Source: Acidobacteriota bacterium
Lineage (GTDB): Bacteria; Pseudomonadota; Alphaproteobacteria; Caulobacterales; Hyphomonadaceae
NCBI GenBank assembly: GCA_016712445.1
Contig: JADJRB010000010.1
Location: 85,778 to 117,777 of the forward strand
DNA: 32,000 nt
Reading direction: 5' to 3'
Shown: one piece after another, positions 6,854 to 29,844 of the stretch
Numbering within the stretch: position 1 is the stretch's first letter
Layout: each line of letters opens with the position of its first letter
The notes under the pieces: model-generated
The model's input: only the letters and a program-made list of their open reading frames with translations
Databases searched by the model: none
Told to the model about the DNA's origin: nothing
Translations under genes and position numbers: made by a program

Positions 6854-7648
6854 CTATTTCACCAGTTCGAACAACACGCTGACGCTCGCCGTCACACCCA
6901 CTTCGCCGCCCGAAACCGGCGAAGACGCCTGGTCCATCGCCATTTCCGCGCGGGCATAAGCCATCGGCTGCGGCGCATACTCGTAGCCCTCGTTGATGGT
7001 CACGATCCGCGCCACGCGCATGCCGGCCGCCGAGGCATAGAGCTCCGCCTTCGCCATCGCATCCTTCATCGCCATCGTGCGGGCTTCGTTCTTGATTTCC
7101 TTGTCATCCTCGATCGCGAAGTTGACGCCGGAGAACGTGTTGCCGCCCGATTTCACCAGGCTGTCGATGGTGGCGCCCAGCGAATCCAGGTCGCGCACGC
7201 GCGCCGTCACCTGGTTGGTCGCCACGTAGCCGGCCAGCTTCTGCACGCCGCGCGAGCTGCCATCCTTCAGCTTCTCCTCGATATAGTCATAGCGCGGATA
7301 GAGGCTCAGGCCGGACGTCTGGATGTCCCGTTTCGTCAGGCCGGCCTTCTCGAGCGCGGCAAACACGCCGTTCATCGCCTTTGCCTGCGCGGCCATCGCT
7401 TCACCCGCGGTCGCGCGCTCCTCGGTGACACCCGCCGTGATGTAGGCAATGTCAGGCGCGCGCTGGATCTTGGCTTCTGCGTTGATCTGCAGCGTCGTCT
7501 CGGGCTGGATCGAATTGTGGTTCATCATCTGCGCCATTGCAGGGTTCCCCGTCATGGGCGCTGCCGAAGCAGGCATTGGCATTTGTGCGCAGGCGACAGG
7601 CGCCGCGGCGAACATCAGGGCAATCAACGAAATTAAGGGACGTTTCAT
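6854..7648 (-). CDS. SIMPL/DUF541 periplasmic protein (BP26/OMP28-like)
   Basis: 264 aa from MKRPLISLIALMFAAAPVACAQ (signal peptide). The body has the pattern LQINAEAKIQRAPDIAYITAGV...LSLYPRYDY...YVATNQVTARVRD...FAIEDDKEIKNEARTMAMKDAMAKAELYA. An SD (GAAGGAG) precedes ATG 7648. Confidence 0.75.
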   Translation of the reverse strand: MKRPLISLIALMFAAAPVACAQMPMPASAAPMTGNPAMAQMMNHNSIQPETTLQINAEAKIQRAPDIAYITAGVTEERATAGEAMAAQAKAMNGVFAALEKAGLTKRDIQTSGLSLYPRYDYIEEKLKDGSSRGVQKLAGYVATNQVTARVRDLDSLGATIDSLVKSGGNTFSGVNFAIEDDKEIKNEARTMAMKDAMAKAELYASAAGMRVARIVTINEGYEYAPQPMAYARAEMAMDQASSPVSGGEVGVTASVSVLFELVK

Positions 7649-7747
7649 GGAGGTCTCCTTCGAGGGGTGAGTAACCGGTACGCCTGTCTTCTCTACCGAA
7701 CAAGGCCGTTGCAAGGCGTCCCTGCGGCGCCTAAACGACCTGCGCAG

Positions 7748-7824
7748 GGGCCTGTAGCTCAGTTGGTTAGAGCGGACCGCTCATAACGGTTTGGTCGCAG
7801 GTTCAAGTCCTGCCGGGCCCACCA
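7748..7824 (+). tRNA. tRNA with anticodon CAT (elongator Met or, more likely, lysidine-modified Ile2)
   Basis: It folds by hand into a 77-nt cloverleaf. Acceptor: GGGCCTG/CGGGCCC. D stem: GCTC/GAGC. Anticodon stem: GACCG/CGGTT. Anticodon loop: CTCATAA. Variable loop: TGGTC. T arm: GCAGG-TTCAAGT-CCTGC. The CCA end is encoded. G1-C72 pairing excludes an initiator tRNA. Confidence 0.9.
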
Positions 7825-7960
7825 CACCTCCCGCGCCATCGGCAACATCGGGAACGAGCCGGCCCGCCGCCGGTTCCCTGATCGCCGCCGCCCCTTCCCA
7901 TGGGGCGCCTGTTGCGTGAGGTTCGGGCGGCACCACACCCATGATTGCGGAGGCCCGCCC

Positions 7961-9211
7961 ATGAAAGCCGATTCACGTCCGCCCCGCTCGCTGGCCGCCA
8001 TGCGACTTGCCGCCGGCAGCCTGCTGATCGCCATGAGCGCGCTATATGTCGCCGCCGTGCTGAACACGGGCGCGGCCTGGGGCTATGCCAAGGCCTTCGC
8101 CGAGGCTGCCATGGTCGGCGGCCTCGCCGACTGGTTCGCCGTCACCGCCCTCTTCCGCCGGCCGCTCGGACTGCCGATCCCGCACACGGCGATCATTCCC
8201 CGCAGCAAGGCACGCATCGCAACCGCGCTCGGGGATTTCGTTGCCGTCAACTTCCTCGCACCAGACGTCGTGCGCGAACGCCTCGGCCAGCAGGACCTCG
8301 CCGGCTCCCTCGCCCGCCAGATCAGCGATCCCCAGACCGCGCGCCGCATCGCAGACGGCCTGTTCGACGCCCTGCCGGGCCTCGTCGACCTGCTCGACGA
8401 CGACGCCGTGAGCGACTTCCTGCACCGGCAGATGTCGGAACTGAGCCGGGGCGGACGCCTGCCCTCGGCCATCGGCTCAGGCCTGCGCCTGCTCACCGAT
8501 CAGGGTCGCCACCAGCCGGTGCTGGATGCCGCCCTGTCGGAAGCGTGGCATGCACTGGCGGAAAACGAGCCAGTCATCCGCGCAAGTGTCAGCGCGCGCA
8601 CCAACTGGTTCCTGCGGCTCGTATCGGTCGACGCGAGCACCTCGAATGCCATGATTGGCGCCATCGAAGACTCGCTGCGCGCAATGGCGCATAATCCTGA
8701 CCATCCGGCCCGCCAGCGGGTGACCGCGCTGTTGCAGCGGTTCTCGGACGATCTGCAGAAATCGCCCGCCCTTCAGGCGCAGGTGGAACAGGTTCTCGCC
8801 GAGGCGCTCGCCCATCCCGCCATCGGAACGTGGCTCGACGCGATCTGGGAAAGCCTGAAATCCGCCGTGCGCGACAGCGCCGCCGACTCCAATTCCGAAG
8901 CGCGTCAGGGGCTCGCCGACACGGTCGCCCACTTCGGCGAATCGCTCAGCACCGATCCGGCGGCGCAGGAGGCCATCAACAGCCGCCTGCGTGTCCTGCT
9001 TGCAGAGCTGGCCGGCCGGCATGGCAGCGACATCGCGCGCCTGATCTCCGACACCATCCAGGGCTGGGACTCGCGCACCGTCGTCGAAAAGCTCGAACAG
9101 AATGTCGGCCCGGACCTGCAGTTCATCCGCATCAACGGCACGCTGATCGGCGGACTCATCGGGCTTACGATCCATCAGCTGACGCTCTGGCTCGCCCCGC
9201 ACGGCGGGTGA
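7961..9211 (+). CDS. DUF445 family membrane-associated protein
   Basis: The N-terminal motif AMVGGLADWFAVTALFRRPLGLPIPHTAIIPRSKARIA and the C-terminal INGTLIGGLIGLTIH are typical of DUF445 (YjiN-like). GGAGG lies 7 nt before ATG 7961, so I prefer that over the track start at 7916. Confidence 0.7.
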   Translation: MKADSRPPRSLAAMRLAAGSLLIAMSALYVAAVLNTGAAWGYAKAFAEAAMVGGLADWFAVTALFRRPLGLPIPHTAIIPRSKARIATALGDFVAVNFLAPDVVRERLGQQDLAGSLARQISDPQTARRIADGLFDALPGLVDLLDDDAVSDFLHRQMSELSRGGRLPSAIGSGLRLLTDQGRHQPVLDAALSEAWHALAENEPVIRASVSARTNWFLRLVSVDASTSNAMIGAIEDSLRAMAHNPDHPARQRVTALLQRFSDDLQKSPALQAQVEQVLAEALAHPAIGTWLDAIWESLKSAVRDSAADSNSEARQGLADTVAHFGESLSTDPAAQEAINSRLRVLLAELAGRHGSDIARLISDTIQGWDSRTVVEKLEQNVGPDLQFIRINGTLIGGLIGLTIHQLTLWLAPHGG

Positions 9212-9352
9212 TCGGAGGCAGGCGCCGCACGTGATTTTCCACCCCAAGATTACAGTTTGGCAATGAGAATGGGGTTTTCGCCGGTGGCGTTAAGTGGCAC
9301 TAGTCGGCAACGAAAAAATGCGCGCCCGAAGATGGTTCAGGAGTAGAGTGCC

Positions 9353-16062: not shown

Positions 16063-16329
16063 TCAGTTGACCGAACGGGCGTCCACGATCTCGGTCAGCG
16101 TCACGCCCAGTTCACCGTCGGCCACCACCAGCTTGCCGCGCGCGATCAGGCGGCCGGAAACGTAGATATCCACCGGCTCGCCGGTCTCCTTCTGCATCGT
16201 CAGCACATCGCCGGGCGCCAGCGCCATCAGCTCTTCCATCGTCAGGCGCACATCGCCGAGCACGACCTCAACGCGCACCGGCACGTCGAGCAGCATCCGG
16301 TGGAAGGCGGGGTTGGTCTGTTCGGTCAT
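16063..16329 (-). CDS. fliN: Flagellar motor switch protein FliN (short form, SpoA domain)
   Basis: 88 aa: LLDVPVRVEVVLGDVRLTMEELMALAPGDVLTMQKETGEPVDIYVSGRLIARGKLVVADGELGVTLTEIV. This is the canonical FliN/SpoA C-terminal domain. Its ATG overlaps the upstream stop (ATGA). Confidence 0.85.
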   Translation of the reverse strand: MTEQTNPAFHRMLLDVPVRVEVVLGDVRLTMEELMALAPGDVLTMQKETGEPVDIYVSGRLIARGKLVVADGELGVTLTEIVDARSVN

Positions 16330-16733
16330 GTCTGTCCTTCCCTGGACGAAGCGGCCGGGGGAAACAAGTCGCCCTGCCCACTGACGATGCGCGCTGCAGC
16401 CCCATCAATCAGGCTGCGCAGCCGTGTCTCGGTCACCGCATGATACTGCGCTGCGCCGATCAGGCCCATCACCTGCGTGATCTCCTCCAGCGCCTGCGAA
16501 AGTTCCGCGCTCACGGCCGCCAGACGTTCGCTTTCGCTATCGGCCCGGCGCTGTTCAACTTCCGCCAGCGTTTCGGCCCGCACCTGCGTGATCAGCGCGG
16601 CCAGTTCTTCGCCGCTGAAGCTGACGCGCGTGTCGGCTTCGCTGGCCACTTCCTTTGCCGGTTCGGGCTGCGCACCGAAATCGGCGCGAAAGTCGAACGC
16701 GGTCACGGACTTGATGGCGCGCACATTGCTCAT
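16326..16733 (-). CDS. Flagellar assembly protein in the FliH/FlbE position (family not confidently recognised)
   Basis: 135 aa with strong GC3 bias. A central Glu/Ala/Arg-rich helical stretch (EELAALITQVRAETLAEVEQRRADSESERLAAVSAELSQALEEI) is reminiscent of the FliH N-terminal coiled coil. The gene overlaps both neighbours by 4 nt. The assignment rests mainly on position between fliG and fliN. Confidence 0.45.
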   Translation of the reverse strand: MSNVRAIKSVTAFDFRADFGAQPEPAKEVASEADTRVSFSGEELAALITQVRAETLAEVEQRRADSESERLAAVSAELSQALEEITQVMGLIGAAQYHAVTETRLRSLIDGAAARIVSGQGDLFPPAASSREGQT

Positions 16734-17644
16734 TCGATCAGGTCGTCTTCCTTGCCGGCCTTGCCGGCGCGGATCTCGCCGCGCTCGATCAGCTGGCGGG
16801 CGAGCGCCACGAGTTCGCCGCGCGCGGCTTCGACATCGGCGCGCCGCACGCTGCCGAGCGCCGCGATTTCCTCGCGCAGCAGTTCGCCTGCGCGCTGGGT
16901 GACGTTGGCGAAGAAGGCCGCCGCCGTCGCCGGTTTCGCGGCCTTCAGGGCGAGCACCAGCACCGCGCGGTTGGCTCCGGCCAACAGCGTCTGCATGCCG
17001 GCCGCGTCGAGCGACGCAAGGTCGTCGAAGGTGAACATCAGGGAACGGACTTTCTCGCCCGCGCCCGGTTCGGATTTTTCCAGCGCCGCAAGGAAGAGAT
17101 TGCCCGCGCGCGGATCAAGACGATCAAAGATGCGCGCGATCCGCTCGACGCCCGGCTGCCCGCCATCACGCGACAGTGCGGCGACGCGGCCCTTGAGATG
17201 CTGTTCCAGCCCGGCCATCGCGGCGGGGTGCACTTCGCCGAGATGCAGCAGGCGCTGCATCGCCTCGATCGCCAGCGAAGGCGGCAAGGCGCGCAGCAGC
17301 CGCGCGGCCGCCTCACCTGAAAGCCGCGACAGGATGAGCGCGACGACCTGCGCCCGCTCGTGACGCGTCAGGACAGCAAGCAGGTTGGTATCAAGCGCCG
17401 ACAGTTCGGCCCACACACCTGCACCGCTCGTGGCGCGCTGGGTTTCGGTGAAGCGGCGCAGCGCATCGGCTTCGCCGTCGGCATCGTCGCCGACCTGATC
17501 CATCGCAGCGCTGAGCTGCGCGGCCTCCTGCGGATCAAGTTGCGCCCAGACCGCCGCAGCTTCGGCGCCAAGCGCCCGCATCAGGCGGGCCGACCGGGCA
17601 AGGCCGGGCGCGAGGATGGAAGCCGGTTTGGCCAGCGCGCTCAC
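16730..17644 (-). CDS. fliG: Flagellar motor switch protein FliG
   Basis: 304 aa. Middle-domain motifs are AQVVALILSRLSGEAAARLLRALPPSLAIEAMQRL. The C-terminus reads SLMFTFDDLASLD...VTQRAGELLREEIAALGSVRRADVEAARGELVALARQLIERGEI, which keeps the charged torque-helix pattern (R, EE, R). The GTG start overlaps the upstream stop (GTGA). Confidence 0.85.
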   Translation of the reverse strand: MSALAKPASILAPGLARSARLMRALGAEAAAVWAQLDPQEAAQLSAAMDQVGDDADGEADALRRFTETQRATSGAGVWAELSALDTNLLAVLTRHERAQVVALILSRLSGEAAARLLRALPPSLAIEAMQRLLHLGEVHPAAMAGLEQHLKGRVAALSRDGGQPGVERIARIFDRLDPRAGNLFLAALEKSEPGAGEKVRSLMFTFDDLASLDAAGMQTLLAGANRAVLVLALKAAKPATAAAFFANVTQRAGELLREEIAALGSVRRADVEAARGELVALARQLIERGEIRAGKAGKEDDLIE

Positions 17645-18288
17645 GAGGCATCCCCCTTGATCCAGCCGCGCACGATCGCAGCCGCTTGCGCGGGATCGCG
17701 CCGGGCAAGGTCGACGGCGGCGTCCGGAACGGCCACCGGCCGCAGCGGTCGCACGCGCTCCGGCGCGCTTGAAACAATAGGTGGATCGATAACCTGCGAG
17801 ACCGGCCCGGCGACGGGCGCCGACTTGCCTGACAGGACCGCGAGGGCGCCGCTGACGAGAACGAGCAAGGCAAGCCCTGCCAGTTCGGTCCAGGCCGCAG
17901 CGTCGGGCCGGCCCGGAAGGCCGCCCGCGAAAGCGATGGTTTCAATCACGAGACGGTCGCCCTGCGCCGGGTTGATGCCGGCCGCGAGGGCGGCAATGCG
18001 CTGCAGGTCCGGAATGCGGTCCGAGGCGGTTTCATCGAGGAGGAGGAGGACCGTGCGGCCGCCCTCGGCATTGTAGGTAACGCTGAGGCGCGACAGGCCG
18101 GGACCGGCGACCGGCGCCAGGACATCCGCCAAAGCCGCTTCGACCGGGCTCGCTGATACCGGCTTGCCCGGCCCGGTCAGCAGGACAGCGCCGCGCCAGA
18201 CGAGCAGGCCAAGCGCCACGGCGCAGGCCAGCATCGCCAGCGGGCGCGCCAGTCCGGCCGTTCCTGCAGGTTTGCCAAGCGCCATCAT
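17641..18288 (-). CDS. Miniature FliF-like M-ring protein (TM - single ring-building-motif-like domain - TM - FliG-binding-like tail)
   Basis: 215 aa from ATG 18288 (the track ORF starts at TTG 18309). Layout: TM1 LARPLAMLACAVALGLLVW; a periplasmic segment of ~95 aa with VEAALADVLAPVAGPG..LSVTY, RTVLLLLDE and IAALAAGINPAQGDRLVIETIAF, resembling the beginning and end of FliF RBM3; TM2 WTELAGLALLVLVSGALAVL; and a tail ending DPAQAAAIVRGWIKGD. It occupies the fliF position directly upstream of fliG. The family call is by eye only. Confidence 0.55.
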   Translation of the reverse strand: MMALGKPAGTAGLARPLAMLACAVALGLLVWRGAVLLTGPGKPVSASPVEAALADVLAPVAGPGLSRLSVTYNAEGGRTVLLLLDETASDRIPDLQRIAALAAGINPAQGDRLVIETIAFAGGLPGRPDAAAWTELAGLALLVLVSGALAVLSGKSAPVAGPVSQVIDPPIVSSAPERVRPLRPVAVPDAAVDLARRDPAQAAAIVRGWIKGDAS

Positions 18289-18344
18289 GCTCTCCGGGGC
18301 CAGCCGCAAGGCTGGCAGATTCCCGGAAAGCTAGAAGGCCAGCC

Positions 18345-18359
18345 TTAAGGCAGGTTTAA
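18345..18359. promoter_or_regulatory. Perfect CtrA-type box TTAA-N7-TTAA upstream of the fliF-like operon
   Basis: TTAA (18345-18348), GGCAGGT, TTAA (18356-18359). It lies 57-71 nt upstream of ATG 18288. It is the only perfect TTAA-N7-TTAA that I found in the window. A GANTC site (GATTC, 18318-18322) lies between the box and the start codon. Confidence 0.55.
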
Positions 18360-18375
18360 CAAGGCAAACAACGCC

Positions 18376-18648
18376 TTAACGGCGGTATTGCTGGAGGCGC
18401 GTGGTGCGAAGGCCTTTGGCGCCGTGACGGGCGTAGAGGCGTTCCCAGCCTTCGAACTCTTCGTCCGTAAGGTTGTAGCGTTCGCAGGCGTTTTCGCGGG
18501 TCAGGAGGCCGCCCTGCACGGCGGCGACGACTTCCGCCTTGCGGCGGGTGACCCATCGGGAAATGCCGGGCGACGGCAAATCGGCGAGCGTGAGGGTCTG
18601 GCCATCCGGGCCTTTGACACTCATCGGGCGTGCATTCTGCATGTTCAT
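18376..18648 (-). CDS. sciP: DUF1153 protein, SciP-like small CtrA-inhibitor-type transcription factor
   Basis: GPDGQTLTLADLPSPGISRWVTRRKAEVVAAVQGGLLTRENACERYNLTDEEFEGWERLYARHGAKGLRTTRLQQYR matches the DUF1153/SciP pattern as I recall it. I prefer ATG 18648 (90 aa; GGAAGGG lies 7 nt upstream) over the track start 18699. Confidence 0.7.
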   Translation of the reverse strand: MNMQNARPMSVKGPDGQTLTLADLPSPGISRWVTRRKAEVVAAVQGGLLTRENACERYNLTDEEFEGWERLYARHGAKGLRTTRLQQYRR

Positions 18649-18870
18649 GTTCAAACCCTTCCAGGTCCAGTGGTGATCTCCCCGCTTCTGCGAGGCCATG
18701 AGATCACCCTACACGCACCGGTTTAAGCCCGGCCTTGACTTGGAAGTTGAGTTTGGCCGCCCCTGTTAGGAGGCTGTTCGGAAAACTGTTCCGCGCCGGG
18801 ACAATCGCGCCAAATGGGGCAAAACATCGACTGGCAGCAGGAAGTTTCGCGGTTTGCGTGCCAGTCCGTC

Positions 18871-18906
18871 AATAAAACGCCCGGCTGCGGGTTTCGCAGC
18901 CGGGCG
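18871..18906 (-). terminator. Rho-independent terminator of the HU-like gene
   Basis: The stem is CGCCCGGCTGC (18878-18888) / GCAGCCGGGCG (18896-18906). On the minus strand it is followed by TTTTATT. It lies 26 nt after the stop at 18932. Confidence 0.65.
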
Positions 18907-18931
18907 CAAATTCCTGGCGTTCTGGCTAAGC

Positions 18932-19330
18932 CTAGAGGACGCGGTCTTTCAGGTCCTTCGAAGGACGGAAGGCAACTTTCTTCGAAGCCTTGATCTTGAT
19001 CGACTCGCCGGTGGCCGGGTTGCGGCCGTTGCGGGCCGGGCGCTTGCGGACCTGCAGGATGCCGAGGCCGGAGATGCGCAGCTTCTTGCCCTTCTTGAGG
19101 TAGCCGCCCATGCGGTCGATGAAATCGGTGACGACGGCTTCAGCCTGTTTCTTCGGCATCGCGTGAGCTTCCGACAGCTCGGCGGCGAGATGCTTGACGG
19201 TCATCACGTCAGACGCAGTGGCTTTCTTGGCCGCAGCTGCTTTTGCCGGCGCTTTCTTTGCCGGGGCTTTCTTTGCAGGCGCTTTTGCGGCCGGCGATTT
19301 CTTTGCCGGGGCTTTCGGTTTAACGGCCAT
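18932..19330 (-). CDS. HU/IHF-family DNA-binding protein with N-terminal Lys/Ala/Pro-rich (histone H1-like) extension
   Basis: 132 aa. The N-terminus, MAVKPKAPAKKSPAAKAPAKKAPAKKAPAKAAAAKKATAS, is followed by an HU fold: MTVKHLAAELSEAHAMPKKQAEAVVTDFIDRMGGYLKKGKKLRISGLGILQVRKRPARNGRNPATGESIKIKASKKVAFRPSKDLK. An SD (AAGGAA) precedes ATG 19330. Confidence 0.85.
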   Translation of the reverse strand: MAVKPKAPAKKSPAAKAPAKKAPAKKAPAKAAAAKKATASDVMTVKHLAAELSEAHAMPKKQAEAVVTDFIDRMGGYLKKGKKLRISGLGILQVRKRPARNGRNPATGESIKIKASKKVAFRPSKDLKDRVL

Positions 19331-19610
19331 GTCTGTTTCCTTTGTTGGACAGTGGAACTGAAACGCAACCTCGAAACGGGATTTCTTCGGCTGCAAACGG
19401 AACGGTAGAGATAATCGACTGAGAGCGGCAGGGCATAACTTCGCTTGCAGGCGGGCGCAAGAGGCCCAATTCGGTTGATGAAAACCCAATTTATCGCCGG
19501 AAAACCCAGCAAAACATGCTTTGCCGCCTGCGCGGAAGGCGCCGCCCCGAATCAGGGAGCATCCGGCAAAGGCCAGATTCCATCCGTGAGCGGATTTTCT
19601 GGCAGCGCGC

Positions 19611-26749: not shown

Positions 26750-27295
26750 GTGCTCCAGCAGGCCACGGGCAGCGATCATGCCCGACTGGACGGACTTGTG
26801 TCCGGACTCGATTTCGCGAACGAGGCGAACTACCGGCGATTCCTGACATCGACGCATGCCGCGCTAGCGGGGCTTGAGCAGCAGCTGGAACGGTCGAATG
26901 TGTCGGGTCTGCTGCAGGACTGGGCGCAGCGGCGGCGGCGGTTCGCGCTGGCAGAGGATCTCGGCGCCCTTGGCGCGGATGCCGGCCAGCCCATGCAGGG
27001 ACCATCAAAAGGCAAGCTGACCAGCGATGAAATGCTGGGCACGCTCTACGTGTTGGAAGGCAGCCGGCTGGGGGCAACTGTGCTCGCCGCCCGCGCGGCC
27101 GACTCTTCAAGCGCCGCGGTGCGCGATAATGTCCGCTACCTGACACATGGCAGGGACGGCCGCTTCTGGCGTTCCTTTCTCTCGCTGCTGGCCGACGCTT
27201 CGGCGGTTGATACCCAACCGATGATCGCAAGTGCGCACGCCGCATTCGCGATCTTTACCCGCGCCTTCGAGGCGCAGGGAGCCGCTTTACGGTGA
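26750..27295 (+). CDS. bphO: Heme oxygenase, bacteriophytochrome-associated (BphO-like)
   Basis: The sequences ATGSDHARLD and GTLYVLEGSRLGATVL are the heme-oxygenase helix patterns. The stop overlaps the bphP GTG (GTGA). GTG 26750 is the first canonical start, but similarity seems to extend upstream (see findings). Confidence 0.7.
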   Translation: MLQQATGSDHARLDGLVSGLDFANEANYRRFLTSTHAALAGLEQQLERSNVSGLLQDWAQRRRRFALAEDLGALGADAGQPMQGPSKGKLTSDEMLGTLYVLEGSRLGATVLAARAADSSSAAVRDNVRYLTHGRDGRFWRSFLSLLADASAVDTQPMIASAHAAFAIFTRAFEAQGAALR

Positions 27296-29844
27296 ATGAC
27301 AACTTAGCGACACAACCGGCAACGTTGAGCAATTGCGACGTTGAGCCGATCCATATTCCGGGAACGATCCAGGCGATCGGTTGCCTGCTGGCCTGTGACC
27401 CGGACAGCTTCGTCATCCGGCATGCGTCCACCAACACTGAAGACCTGCTGGGTCTCGGCGCGGGAAGCGTGATCGGCGCATCGCTCGACGATGTGCTGGG
27501 CCGGGAGATCGGCCACGAGGTGCGCAACAGCCTTGCCCGCTCGCCGGACCCGTCGCGGCCCGGCCTGCTGTTCCGGCAGAACGCCAGCGGCGGCCGCGCC
27601 TTCGATATCGTGGCTCACATGCATGATGGCCGCGTGATCATTGAACTGAAACCTGCGGCGCCGCAGTCCGATCCGGCATCGCTGGAACTCGCGCGCACGA
27701 TCATCCGGCGGCTGGGTGCGGAGACGCGGCTGTCGCAGCTCTTGCGCAATGCGCCGCGGCTGCTGTTCGGCGCGCTGAAGTACGACCGCGTGATGGTCTA
27801 CCGCTTCGCCGAGAATGGCGCCGGCCAGGTGGTGGCAGAGACGAAGCGCGCCGACCTCGAGAGCTTTTCGGGCCAGTGGTTCCCGGCGAGCGACATTCCG
27901 GCCCAGGCGCGTGCGCTCTACTTGCGCAACACGATCCGCGTGGTGTCTGATGCATCAGGCGAGACGGTGCCGATCCTGCCGGTGACCGATGCGGACGGCC
28001 GCCCGATCGACCTCAGCTATGCCCACCTGCGAAGCGTCTCGCCGATCCACTGCGAATATCTGCGCAACATGGGCGTCGCCGCGTCGATGTCGGTGTCGAT
28101 CATCGTCGAGGGAAAGCTCTGGGGACTGATTGCCTGCCACCACTATTCGCCGCGCGCCCTGTCGCTGGCCGAACGGATGAACATCGAGCTGATCGGTGAC
28201 TGTTTCTCGATGCAGGTGGAGTCGCTGATTTCCCGCGAACTGCTGCAGGCAGCTGCCAAGGTGCGCGCCGCGCTGGGCGACATCCTTCTGCGCATCGTCG
28301 ACGAGCCGCGCCCTGACCTGCTGCTGCGCGCGCGGATCGATGACATGGCGAAACTGATCCCCAGCGACGGCGCCGCGCTCTGGCTGGAGGGCGAAGCGGA
28401 GCGGTCCGGTCGTACGCCTGCGGACGATATCCTGCAGCAGGTCGCGCGCCTGGCAGAGTCTGAAGCGCCCGGGCAAGTGTGGGCTACCGACCGACTGTCG
28501 ACGCGGCTGGAAGGGCCGATGCCCGGCGGGCCGGCGGGCGTGCTTGCCATTCCGCTGTCGAAGGCGGCCGGCGACTACCTGTTCTATTTCCGCAAGGAAG
28601 TGGTCGAGACGATCGAATGGGGCGGCGATCCGAACAAGGCCTACACGACCGGCCCGAACGGCGACCGACTGACGCCGCGCGTCAGTTTCGCAATCTGGAA
28701 GGAAGAAGTACGCGGACAATCCCAGCCCTGGACGGCGCAGGTGCTCGAAGCGGCAGAAGGCATCAGGATTGCGTTGATGGAAATCACGCTGCGCCAGACG
28801 GCGCTTTTGCAAGCGGAACGCCAGCAGGCCGAGGTGCGCCAGCGCCGGCTGAACGACGAGCTGAACCACCGCGTCAAGAACATCCTTGCCCTGATTCGCT
28901 CGCTGCTGCGCCAGTCGAAGGACGATGGCCGCTCGCTGGCAGACTATGTCTCGACGCTGGAAGGGCGCATCATGTCGCTCGCCAAGGCGCACGACCAGGT
29001 CTGGCATGGCAGCGAAGGCGGCCACCTGAAGAGCCTCGTCGAGACCGAGCTGTCGCCCTATCACGGCCGGGGCGCGGTGATTGAGCTGCAAGGCCCGCCG
29101 GTCGTGCTGGATGCACGGGCGTTTTCGGTGGTTGCACTGGTCGTGCACGAGCTGGCGACGAACGCGGCGAAGTATGGATCCATCTCTTCCGACCACGGAC
29201 GGCTCGATATCGCCTGGCGCTTGAACGATTCCGGCGACTGCGTGATCGAGTGGACTGAAAGCGGCGGGCCGCCGGTCACGCCGCCGAAGCGCAAGGGCTT
29301 TGGCTCGACGCTGATCGACCGCAGCATTCCGTTTGACCTGCAGGGCGAGGTCGACCTCGCCTACAGGCCGGAGGGCCTGCGGGCATCGATCCGGATCCCC
29401 GCGCCATTTGTCTCGGTGGCAGAGGCAGCGCCGGCCTCGGCCGCCTCCCCTGCCCAGCGCAAGGCGCCGCGCGTGTCGCTCGCGGGCCTGAACATGCTCG
29501 TGGTCGAAGACCAGTTCGTGGTGGCGCTGGAGATGGAGGACCTCCTCCTCAAGCTGGGCGCGGAGACCGTCGAAGTGGCCGCGACCCCCGCCAACGCGCT
29601 GGCCGCCATCCGCCGGCAGAAGCCGGATGTCGCACTGCTCGACGTGAACCTCGGCGGGTCGTCATCGATCGAGGTCGCGCGCACGCTGATCGGCGCCGGG
29701 GTGCCGGTGCTGTTCACGACCGGCTATGCCGACAATGCGCATATCCCGCCGGAACTGCAGGCGGTGCCGGTGCTGCGCAAGCCCTACACGTCGGCCCTGC
29801 TGTCCGCTGCGCTCGAACGCCTGCTGCGCGGGCGCGCGGTCTGA
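27292..29844 (+). CDS. bphP: Bacteriophytochrome photoreceptor: PAS-GAF-PHY + HWE/HisKA_2 histidine kinase + C-terminal receiver
   Basis: Biliverdin-binding Cys lies in LSNCDVEPIHIPG. GAF motifs: DRVMVYRF, FPASDIPAQAR, LRSVSPIHCEYLRNMGVAASMSVSI, LWGLIACHH. PHY tongue: WGG...PRVSF. HWE kinase: ELNHRVKNILALI, HELATNAAKYG, VIEWTESGGP, GFGSTLI. Receiver: LVVEDQFVVALEMEDLL...PDVALLDVNLGG...LFTTGYAD. Confidence 0.9.
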   Translation: MNDNLATQPATLSNCDVEPIHIPGTIQAIGCLLACDPDSFVIRHASTNTEDLLGLGAGSVIGASLDDVLGREIGHEVRNSLARSPDPSRPGLLFRQNASGGRAFDIVAHMHDGRVIIELKPAAPQSDPASLELARTIIRRLGAETRLSQLLRNAPRLLFGALKYDRVMVYRFAENGAGQVVAETKRADLESFSGQWFPASDIPAQARALYLRNTIRVVSDASGETVPILPVTDADGRPIDLSYAHLRSVSPIHCEYLRNMGVAASMSVSIIVEGKLWGLIACHHYSPRALSLAERMNIELIGDCFSMQVESLISRELLQAAAKVRAALGDILLRIVDEPRPDLLLRARIDDMAKLIPSDGAALWLEGEAERSGRTPADDILQQVARLAESEAPGQVWATDRLSTRLEGPMPGGPAGVLAIPLSKAAGDYLFYFRKEVVETIEWGGDPNKAYTTGPNGDRLTPRVSFAIWKEEVRGQSQPWTAQVLEAAEGIRIALMEITLRQTALLQAERQQAEVRQRRLNDELNHRVKNILALIRSLLRQSKDDGRSLADYVSTLEGRIMSLAKAHDQVWHGSEGGHLKSLVETELSPYHGRGAVIELQGPPVVLDARAFSVVALVVHELATNAAKYGSISSDHGRLDIAWRLNDSGDCVIEWTESGGPPVTPPKRKGFGSTLIDRSIPFDLQGEVDLAYRPEGLRASIRIPAPFVSVAEAAPASAASPAQRKAPRVSLAGLNMLVVEDQFVVALEMEDLLLKLGAETVEVAATPANALAAIRRQKPDVALLDVNLGGSSSIEVARTLIGAGVPVLFTTGYADNAHIPPELQAVPVLRKPYTSALLSAALERLLRGRAV

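Follow-up and report, generated by a model that had tools for sequence, protein, structure and literature searches.

A FliF derivative with a single predicted ring-building domain is retained together with FliG and FliN beside sciP in Hyphomonas

Canonical FliF, the M-ring protein of the bacterial flagellum, has a length of 520-580 amino acids (aa), corresponds to the Pfam families PF01514 and PF08345, and is exemplified by the Salmonella structure 6SCN. The one exception to its layout of three ring-building motifs (RBMs) noted in a 2016 survey is the FliF of the Chlamydiaceae, a FliF-FliG fusion of approximately 330 aa (Bergeron 2016, PMC4768692). Here we characterize a 214-aa protein, referred to as mini-FliF, that is encoded at 17641..18285 on the minus strand of a 32,000-nucleotide (nt) stretch of Hyphomonadaceae DNA (contig JADJRB010000010.1 of assembly GCA_016712445.1, positions 85,778 to 117,777), the whole of which we call the window. 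Judged by profile homology and a structure model, mini-FliF is a genuine FliF derivative cut to a first transmembrane helix (TM1), the core of the third ring-building motif (RBM3), a second transmembrane helix (TM2), and a predicted FliG-binding tail. It shares with canonical FliF the two transmembrane helices, the RBM3 core, and the tail with its conserved tryptophan, and both genes stand first in an operon with fliG next, whereas the much shorter mini-FliF is without RBM1, RBM2, and the beta-collar. The Chlamydiaceae protein and mini-FliF are both reduced, and the gene of each lies outside a complete cluster of flagellar genes. However, the former retains two RBMs, one of them RBM2, in fusion with a FliG-M-like domain (PMC4768692), while mini-FliF keeps the RBM3 core only, together with the FliG-binding tail, and is accompanied by a separate FliG of three domains.

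The closest described operon is that of Caulobacter crescentus, in which sciP (CC_0903) and fliF (CC_0905) are two genes apart; this proximity suggests that the window locus corresponds in position to the fliF operon of Caulobacter. We take the latter to be a class II operon with the order fliF-fliG-flbE-fliN(-flbD) and a CtrA-box-type upstream element. The two operons share their gene order and the sciP neighborhood. Caulobacter FliF is of full length and builds the flagellum, whereas the window copy is minimised; the FliG, FlbE-position protein, and FliN of the window are likewise all shorter than those of Caulobacter, flbD is absent, and another locus would supply the flagellar set. Single-RBM proteins such as SctJ/YscJ and SpoIIIAG/AH have the same periplasmic alpha-beta-beta-alpha-beta ring-building fold as mini-FliF, but compared to SctJ/YscJ the window protein possesses no lipobox and its sequence affinity is to the RBM3, TM2, and tail of FliF. 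A second FliG besides the main switch protein is known from flagellated spirochaetes (FliG1 and FliG2), where it is a single extra gene, whereas here a whole coupled set of FliF, FliG, a further protein, and FliN appears duplicated and minimised. Our literature search found no description of a single-RBM FliF or of this operon module.

The relationship to FliF became visible through family profiles. As a single sequence, the 214-aa protein fell short of the curated FliF thresholds: PF08345 scored 12 bits (E 0.3) against a gathering threshold of 23.8, and the NCBIfam scan, FliF models included, gave no match at E<=1. A profile of Hyphomonas members only found no FliF in the PDB. When a profile of Hyphomonas homologues was searched against 1.8 billion representatives, it recovered approximately 110 clusters (50% identity) of 200-240 aa at E<=1e-10, and it reached proteins of 505-572 aa, named FliF by their sources, at 1e-6 to 1e-5, with the match confined to their last 150-170 residues. 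Aligning 54 family members with eight full-length FliFs in hhalign gave a probability of 98.7% (E 3.8e-16) and paired mini-FliF residues 78-214 with FliF 352-521 (of 522). The broad family profile also matched the solved FliF chains 12dr_A (2.4e-5) and Salmonella 6scn_A (6.5e-5), the latter over residues 84-220 against Salmonella FliF 396-559. Further upstream, residues 45-72 are collinear with FliF 238-265, which comprises alpha1-beta1 of RBM3, although this alignment is weak (E 9e-4, probability 22%), and the N-terminal part also aligns weakly with Salmonella FliF 241-268. An initial annotation, made from the letters of the window, had described a FliF-like protein whose periplasmic segment resembles the beginning and end of RBM3, with RBM1, RBM2, and the beta-collar apparently missing. 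This description is borne out by the alignments, weakly for residues 45-72 and well for 78-117, and by a five-residue turn at the site of the collar. The two Pfam profiles it had proposed as a check gave a divided answer, in that PF08345 was matched below threshold by 18 of the 54 family members (best 1.2e-4) and PF01514 (YscJ_FliF) by none at E<=1.

It was noted that JGI pipelines already label some family members as COG FliF/YscJ, while NCBI calls them hypothetical. An SctJ-like lipoprotein identity was considered and rejected, given the lack of a PF01514 match and a TM1 cysteine that is not conserved across the family. Short FliF-like matches of 176-275 aa were likewise set aside; they look like fragments of normal FliF, in that several have no initiator methionine and the matches extend over the C-terminal part of FliF only. 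One entry that is not fragment-like, P0234 (275 aa, from another lineage), has TM1 followed directly by RBM3 with its collar, TM2, and the tail, without RBM1 or RBM2, and its form indicates that other reduced FliF forms may exist.

The AlphaFold model of mini-FliF (mean predicted local distance difference test score, pLDDT, of 77, rising to 88-96 in the periplasmic domain) consists of a transmembrane helix at residues 10-37, an alpha-helix at 47-60, beta-strands at 65-71 and 77-84, an alpha-helix at 85-101, a beta-strand at 111-117, a second transmembrane helix at 129-152, a disordered linker, and helices at 188-209. The earlier outline of TM1, a periplasmic segment of about 95 aa, TM2, and a tail of about 55 aa agrees with this order. 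TM1 (18175..18258, minus strand, as are all parts of the protein) is a hydrophobic model helix with pLDDT 83-90 that is conserved in the family and followed by an invariant or near-invariant WR. The periplasmic ring-building-motif domain (residues 47-117; 17935..18147) corresponds in the model to the alpha-beta-beta-alpha-beta core of RBM3, of which beta2-alpha2-beta3 aligns at the 98.7 probability given above, with residues 78-117 set against FliF 352-404. FliF 266-351, approximately 86 residues that include the beta-collar, has no counterpart, and beta1 is linked to beta2 in mini-FliF by the turn of five residues. With transmembrane helices at both of its ends, the periplasmic region measures only about 91 residues, and RBM1 and RBM2 are absent from it. 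TM2 (residues 129-152; 17830..17901) is a model helix that aligns with TM2 of full-length FliF. The C-terminal cytoplasmic helices (residues 188-209; 17659..17724) carry D-P-x-x-A-A-x-[IV]-[VL]-R-x-W-[IM], the motif of the FliF tail, which aligns with the C-termini of full-length FliFs, those of Salmonella and Vibrio included, and is on this basis a predicted FliG-binding segment. Two residues of this motif, P198 and W208, are the sole invariant residues across the 54 diverse family members.

Mini-fliF is the second of five minus-strand genes in a row, consisting of sciP (18376..18699), mini-fliF, fliG (16730..17644), a gene for a 135-aa protein at the FliH/FlbE position (16326..16733), and fliN (16063..16329), after which a phenylalanine hydroxylase gene is found. 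The first gene encodes SciP, the CtrA inhibitor, passing the equivalog cutoff of NCBIfam NF051866 (CtrAInhibSciP; 131.8 bits against 100, 7e-39) and matching Pfam DUF1153 at 3e-38. The four genes from mini-fliF to fliN were described at the outset as intact and translationally coupled, which agrees with their open frames and with three 4-nt overlaps at the successive junctions (GTGA, ATGA, ATGA).

The FliG paralogue is short, at 304 aa (283-318 aa among orthologues, which were all that the FliG protein search listed), and possesses all three domains above the Pfam gathering thresholds, namely FliG_N at 3.8e-10, FliG_M at 1.1e-12, and FliG_C at 2.4e-32. It matches FliG structures in the PDB at values down to 5e-28, and its TIGR00207 score of 140.5 against a cutoff of 226.7 marks it as a divergent member of the FliG family. 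As first proposed, the charged residues of the torque helix are kept; alignment with Thermotoga maritima and Vibrio FliG recovered the K in ALKAAK, the QR, the REE, and the VRR, which represent the MotA-facing residues, and these charges are invariant across orthologues including the most distant one. The FliM-binding EHPQR motif takes the form E96-R-A-Q99 plus R131 in the window, with EHPQ intact in some orthologues (loci L029 and L032) and degenerate in others.

The 135-aa protein contains an invariant F-x-F-R-x-D-F near its N-terminus, a helical middle, and G-Q-G-D-L-F near its C-terminus. No relative was found in Pfam, NCBIfam, or the PDB, and its profile returned only coiled-coil noise from the latter; its likeness to FliH/FlbE would lie in its position and its aromatic N-terminal motif. 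The fourth gene of the operon encodes a minimal FliN of 88 aa that consists of the SpoA domain only, with matches to Pfam FliMN_C (PF01052) at 4e-23, to TIGR02480 at 87.1 against a cutoff of 84.05, and to PDB 1o6a at 2.7e-18.

We examined the start and the leader of the operon. The longest mini-fliF open reading frame (ORF), 17641-18309, opens at a TTG at 18309, while the ATG at 18285 gives 214 aa, the length of database entry P0001. All mini-FliF orthologues open with MA[FL]G following a GGAG ribosome-binding site, and the TTG is an unlikely start because a conserved hairpin of the leader holds it in its loop. The true start is the ATG at 18285. The original estimate of about 215 aa in 648-669 nt thus described a real ORF, of which the longest start has to be replaced. 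The end of sciP at 18376 and its 66-nt distance from the TTG were correctly given, and the distance to the ATG is 90 nt. The leader forms a conserved stem-loop (18289..18331, minus strand) in which the Shine-Dalgarno GGAG pairs with an upstream CUUUCC, reading CUUUCC or CUCUCC across loci, and which encloses a GC-rich hairpin at 18299-18316. Its minimum free energy is -40.4 kcal/mol (z-score -4.4; 0/200 shuffles fold as well), and RNAalifold identified 11 pairs, four of them with compensatory double changes across loci. No Rfam family matches the stem-loop, which may be a translational control element.

The sciP/mini-fliF intergenic region also contains a perfect CtrA-box consensus, TTAA-N7-TTAA (18345..18359), closely following the sciP stop and approximately 60 nt before the mini-fliF start. 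It is the sole perfect match in the 32-kb window, against 0.01 expected by chance, and most orthologous loci have the box at this position, either identical or with a single mismatch. This pattern points to a putative CtrA-type promoter for the mini-fliF operon.

The five-gene layout was found to be conserved well beyond the window. The order sciP, mini-fliF, fliG, 135-aa gene, fliN was present in 32 of 32 related loci fetched, with sciP adjoining the operon in each; the loci come from, among others, 26 GTDB species assigned to Hyphomonas or Hyphomonadaceae. One of these is H. polymorpha PS728, which has been cultured, as have H. johnsonii and H. chukchiensis, where the operon is also kept. 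The loci further include a divergent lineage whose flanking genes differ, and its mini-FliF was missed by tblastn and is 24-28% identical in the alignment. The genome scan with the Hyphomonas alignment reached Hyphomonas-level relatives only, matches of the protein-database profile search were dominated by Hyphomonas, and tblastn against plasmids gave no match for mini-FliF. The stop/start overlap between mini-fliF and fliG is kept in 22 of 24 loci, and the short length is retained in the 94 close clusters. The comparison of orthologue lengths that the initial annotation had called for thus gave 200-240 aa throughout the homologues. Mini-fliF dN/dS values (non-synonymous to synonymous substitution rates) were 0.13-0.17 for pairs with dS of 0.2-0.6. 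Mini-fliF is a real gene under purifying selection, not an artefact or a gene in decay; simple decay had been argued against from the start, and the dN/dS of approximately 0.15, conserved length, and conserved operon agree.

It was noted that the database entries 100% identical to proteins of the window, P0001 and P0258, are labelled as an 'Acidobacteria bacterium' metagenome-assembled genome (MAG), and several related loci as 'Candidatus Sulfopaludibacter'. These labels look like mis-binned or mislabelled MAG contigs, since all of the sequence relatives and the synteny are those of Hyphomonas.

No further flagellar genes were found within the 32-kb window. According to published supplement tables (Leicht et al. 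2020, PMC7200025), the sequenced relative H. neptunium possesses a motility island, HNE_0239-0276, with a full-length fliF, HNE_0242 (232121-233720; approximately 1.6 kb, about 533 aa, COG1766), a putative FliG, HNE_0246 (about 363 aa, COG1536), a hypothetical gene at the FliH position, FliN (HNE_0244), FliP, FliM (HNE_0252), MotB, and MotA (PMC7200025). A separate locus, arranged as in the window, consists of HNE_1390 (sciP) followed by HNE_1391 and HNE_1393, both hypothetical, with HNE_1392 (putative FliG) between these two. Its genes reach 33-100 normalised counts compared to 190-2600 for the island FliG, FliF, and FliN, and they are mildly up in a divJ mutant (PMC7200025). The initial annotation had treated the present locus as the place where the M-ring protein of the cell is expected. 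This did not hold for H. neptunium, where HNE_0242 stands elsewhere with its own FliG, FliN, FliM, and MotA/MotB. A full-length fliF with a fliG partner elsewhere, together with a silent locus here, had been named as grounds for abandoning the proposal; the first of these is found in H. neptunium, but the H. neptunium locus is expressed. Two further H. neptunium genes were observed outside the island, HNE_0504, a SpoA protein with a FliM COG and a CtrA peak in chromatin immunoprecipitation (ChIP) data, and HNE_0894, another MotB, which belongs to the direct CtrA regulon. Both are possible members of a dispersed second rotor/stator set.

We judge it reasonably probable that the window operon is a paralogous, minimised rotor module, most likely a remnant of a Caulobacter-type sciP-linked fliF-fliG-flbE-fliN operon, and that a separate Fla2-like island with a full-length FliF specifies the flagellum. 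The complete flagellar gene set that H. neptunium has beside such a locus is the reason for regarding the module as spare and repurposed, and the island resembles the fla2 arrangement of R. sphaeroides. In the simplest history, flagellum building would have passed to a Fla2-like system, with the older fliF operon persisting in a minimised state. Among the three options initially offered, that is, a genuinely minimal MS-ring scaffold, a split arrangement, and a paralogous rotor module that serves some non-canonical role, the third fits best.

As a minimised rotor module, the operon products could work as follows. Mini-FliF would insert in the inner membrane by its two transmembrane helices, with its single RBM3-core domain facing the periplasm and oligomerising as RBM domains do; the resulting ring, without collar, RBM1, or RBM2, would offer no housing for an export gate or rod. 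The cytoplasmic tail would recruit the N-domain of the co-translated short FliG, which, with the SpoA-only FliN and the 135-aa protein, may form a C-ring-like layer below the membrane. The aromatic N-terminal motif of the 135-aa protein may bind FliN in the fashion of FliH, and FliG would still display the charged helix that normally faces MotA. Our best guess is that the module plays an accessory part linked to the swarmer-cell programme, as a polar scaffold or as a structure that interacts with stators.

Several observations weigh against this reading or parts of it. Foldseek matches of mini-FliF to FliF RBM3 have a probability of 1.0 but E-values of only about 1e-2. Tail-FliG binding and ring formation are predictions that we infer from homology, and a fused mini-FliF/FliG chain modelled in AlphaFold with a FliG-only multiple sequence alignment reached a pLDDT of 57. 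The evidence for a full-length fliF comes from the published H. neptunium data and concerns that species instead of the window's own genome, and the correspondence of the HNE_1390-1393 layout to the window locus would make HNE_1391-1393 orthologues by gene order and annotation, not by sequence. In the H. neptunium ChIP data, HNE_1391-1393 are listed without a CtrA site and outside the CtrA regulon (PMC7200025), which argues against CtrA control of the operon, at least in that species. Finally, BLAST at E<1e-3 found no Caulobacter match for either FliG or FliN of the island, while the operon FliG and FliN look canonical, so the operon copies could still be the working flagellar switch proteins.

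The last point leads to the best surviving alternative, which we regard as unlikely yet deserving of weight. Under this explanation, the operon serves the one flagellum of the cell, either because its FliG and FliN are the switch subunits of the island basal body or because mini-FliF brings FliG to full-length FliF, with which it co-assembles or for which it acts as a chaperone. HNE_0246 and HNE_0244 carry only 'putative' assignments besides finding no hit in Caulobacter, the operon proteins match solved FliG (5e-28) and FliN (3e-18), the stator-facing charges are invariant, and the upstream CtrA box is of the kind found in flagellar class II promoters. The FliM-like HNE_0504 and the second MotB, HNE_0894, also lend this explanation some weight. 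However, the island genes bear FliG, FliN, and FliM COG assignments, their expression is several-fold higher, and CtrA binds them along with the other flagellar genes, while HNE_1391-1393 stand outside that regulon. In addition, published FliF structures imply that mixing an RBM3 without a collar into an MS ring would disrupt its 34-fold beta-collar.

A second alternative, which appears rather improbable, places the operon at the core of a rotor/stator device without a flagellum. In such a device, a FliG/FliN ring mounted on the collar-less mini MS-ring would still engage MotAB-type stators, without rod, hook, or filament and with another polar or signalling function, and it might act with the FliM-like HNE_0504 and the MotB-like HNE_0894. 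The split arrangement, in which another protein supplies the periplasmic rings, is a minority possibility.

A genuinely minimal MS ring, with mini-FliF as the sole FliF and one RBM domain sufficing as the flagellar base, is very unlikely. The gene does occupy the fliF position of a Caulobacter-type operon, the window holds no other flagellar genes, and the evidence for a full-length fliF comes from H. neptunium. However, this congener has both the full-length fliF and a full island, and from general knowledge of FliF structure the export gate and rod would be unheld without RBM1, RBM2, and the collar. Hyphomonas is a flagellated genus, and the operon is kept in many of its species, cultured ones included. 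The weakest explanation, that the operon is a decaying, non-functional relic or reflects a deletion in the assembly, could call on the four proteins all being shorter than their canonical counterparts, on the low H. neptunium expression, and on the degenerate FliM-binding site (ERAQ) of the clade, but it is barely tenable beside the dN/dS values, the intact frames with their conserved overlap, the roughly 110 clusters of equal length, and the invariant functional motifs, and the divergent flanks of homologues argue against a relic spread recently as a mobile element.

The surroundings of the operon were also examined. On the other side of sciP, the window encodes an HU-family DNA-binding protein (18932-19489, minus strand), the longest ORF of which has a histone-H1-like N-terminal extension of about 90 residues that is rich in Lys, Ala, and Pro (AKKAPAKK repeats); the orthologue in a related Hyphomonas MAG (locus L001) is called at 90 aa only, which leaves translation of the extension in doubt. 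In that MAG, a 745-aa TIR/WD40-repeat gene (7093-9330) is inserted between the HU gene and sciP. This gene, possibly a defence-type insertion, is lacking from the window (compared stretch approximately 18700-18930). What the window does contain between its HU gene and sciP is a strong terminator-like hairpin (18877-18907, minus strand) of 13 pairs, 11 of them GC, followed by a T-run; the hairpin by itself probably explains a weak, sub-threshold Rfam match to anti-hemB (E 0.23) that overlaps it. Farther away, at 27292-29844 on the plus strand, a single gene encodes a fusion of a bacteriophytochrome (PAS_2-GAF-PHY) with an HWE histidine kinase and a receiver domain.

FliF is viewed as carrying three ring-building motifs nearly wherever it occurs. 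Here it is trimmed to the RBM3 core and tail and has long been retained with FliG and FliN. If mini-FliF forms rings, it would offer a minimal system for the share of RBM3 in ring assembly and stoichiometry and for the templating of a FliG ring. The conserved stator-facing helix of the operon FliG raises the question of the present job of these retained rotor parts. The module would also be an example of flagellar parts outliving the replacement of one flagellar system by another.

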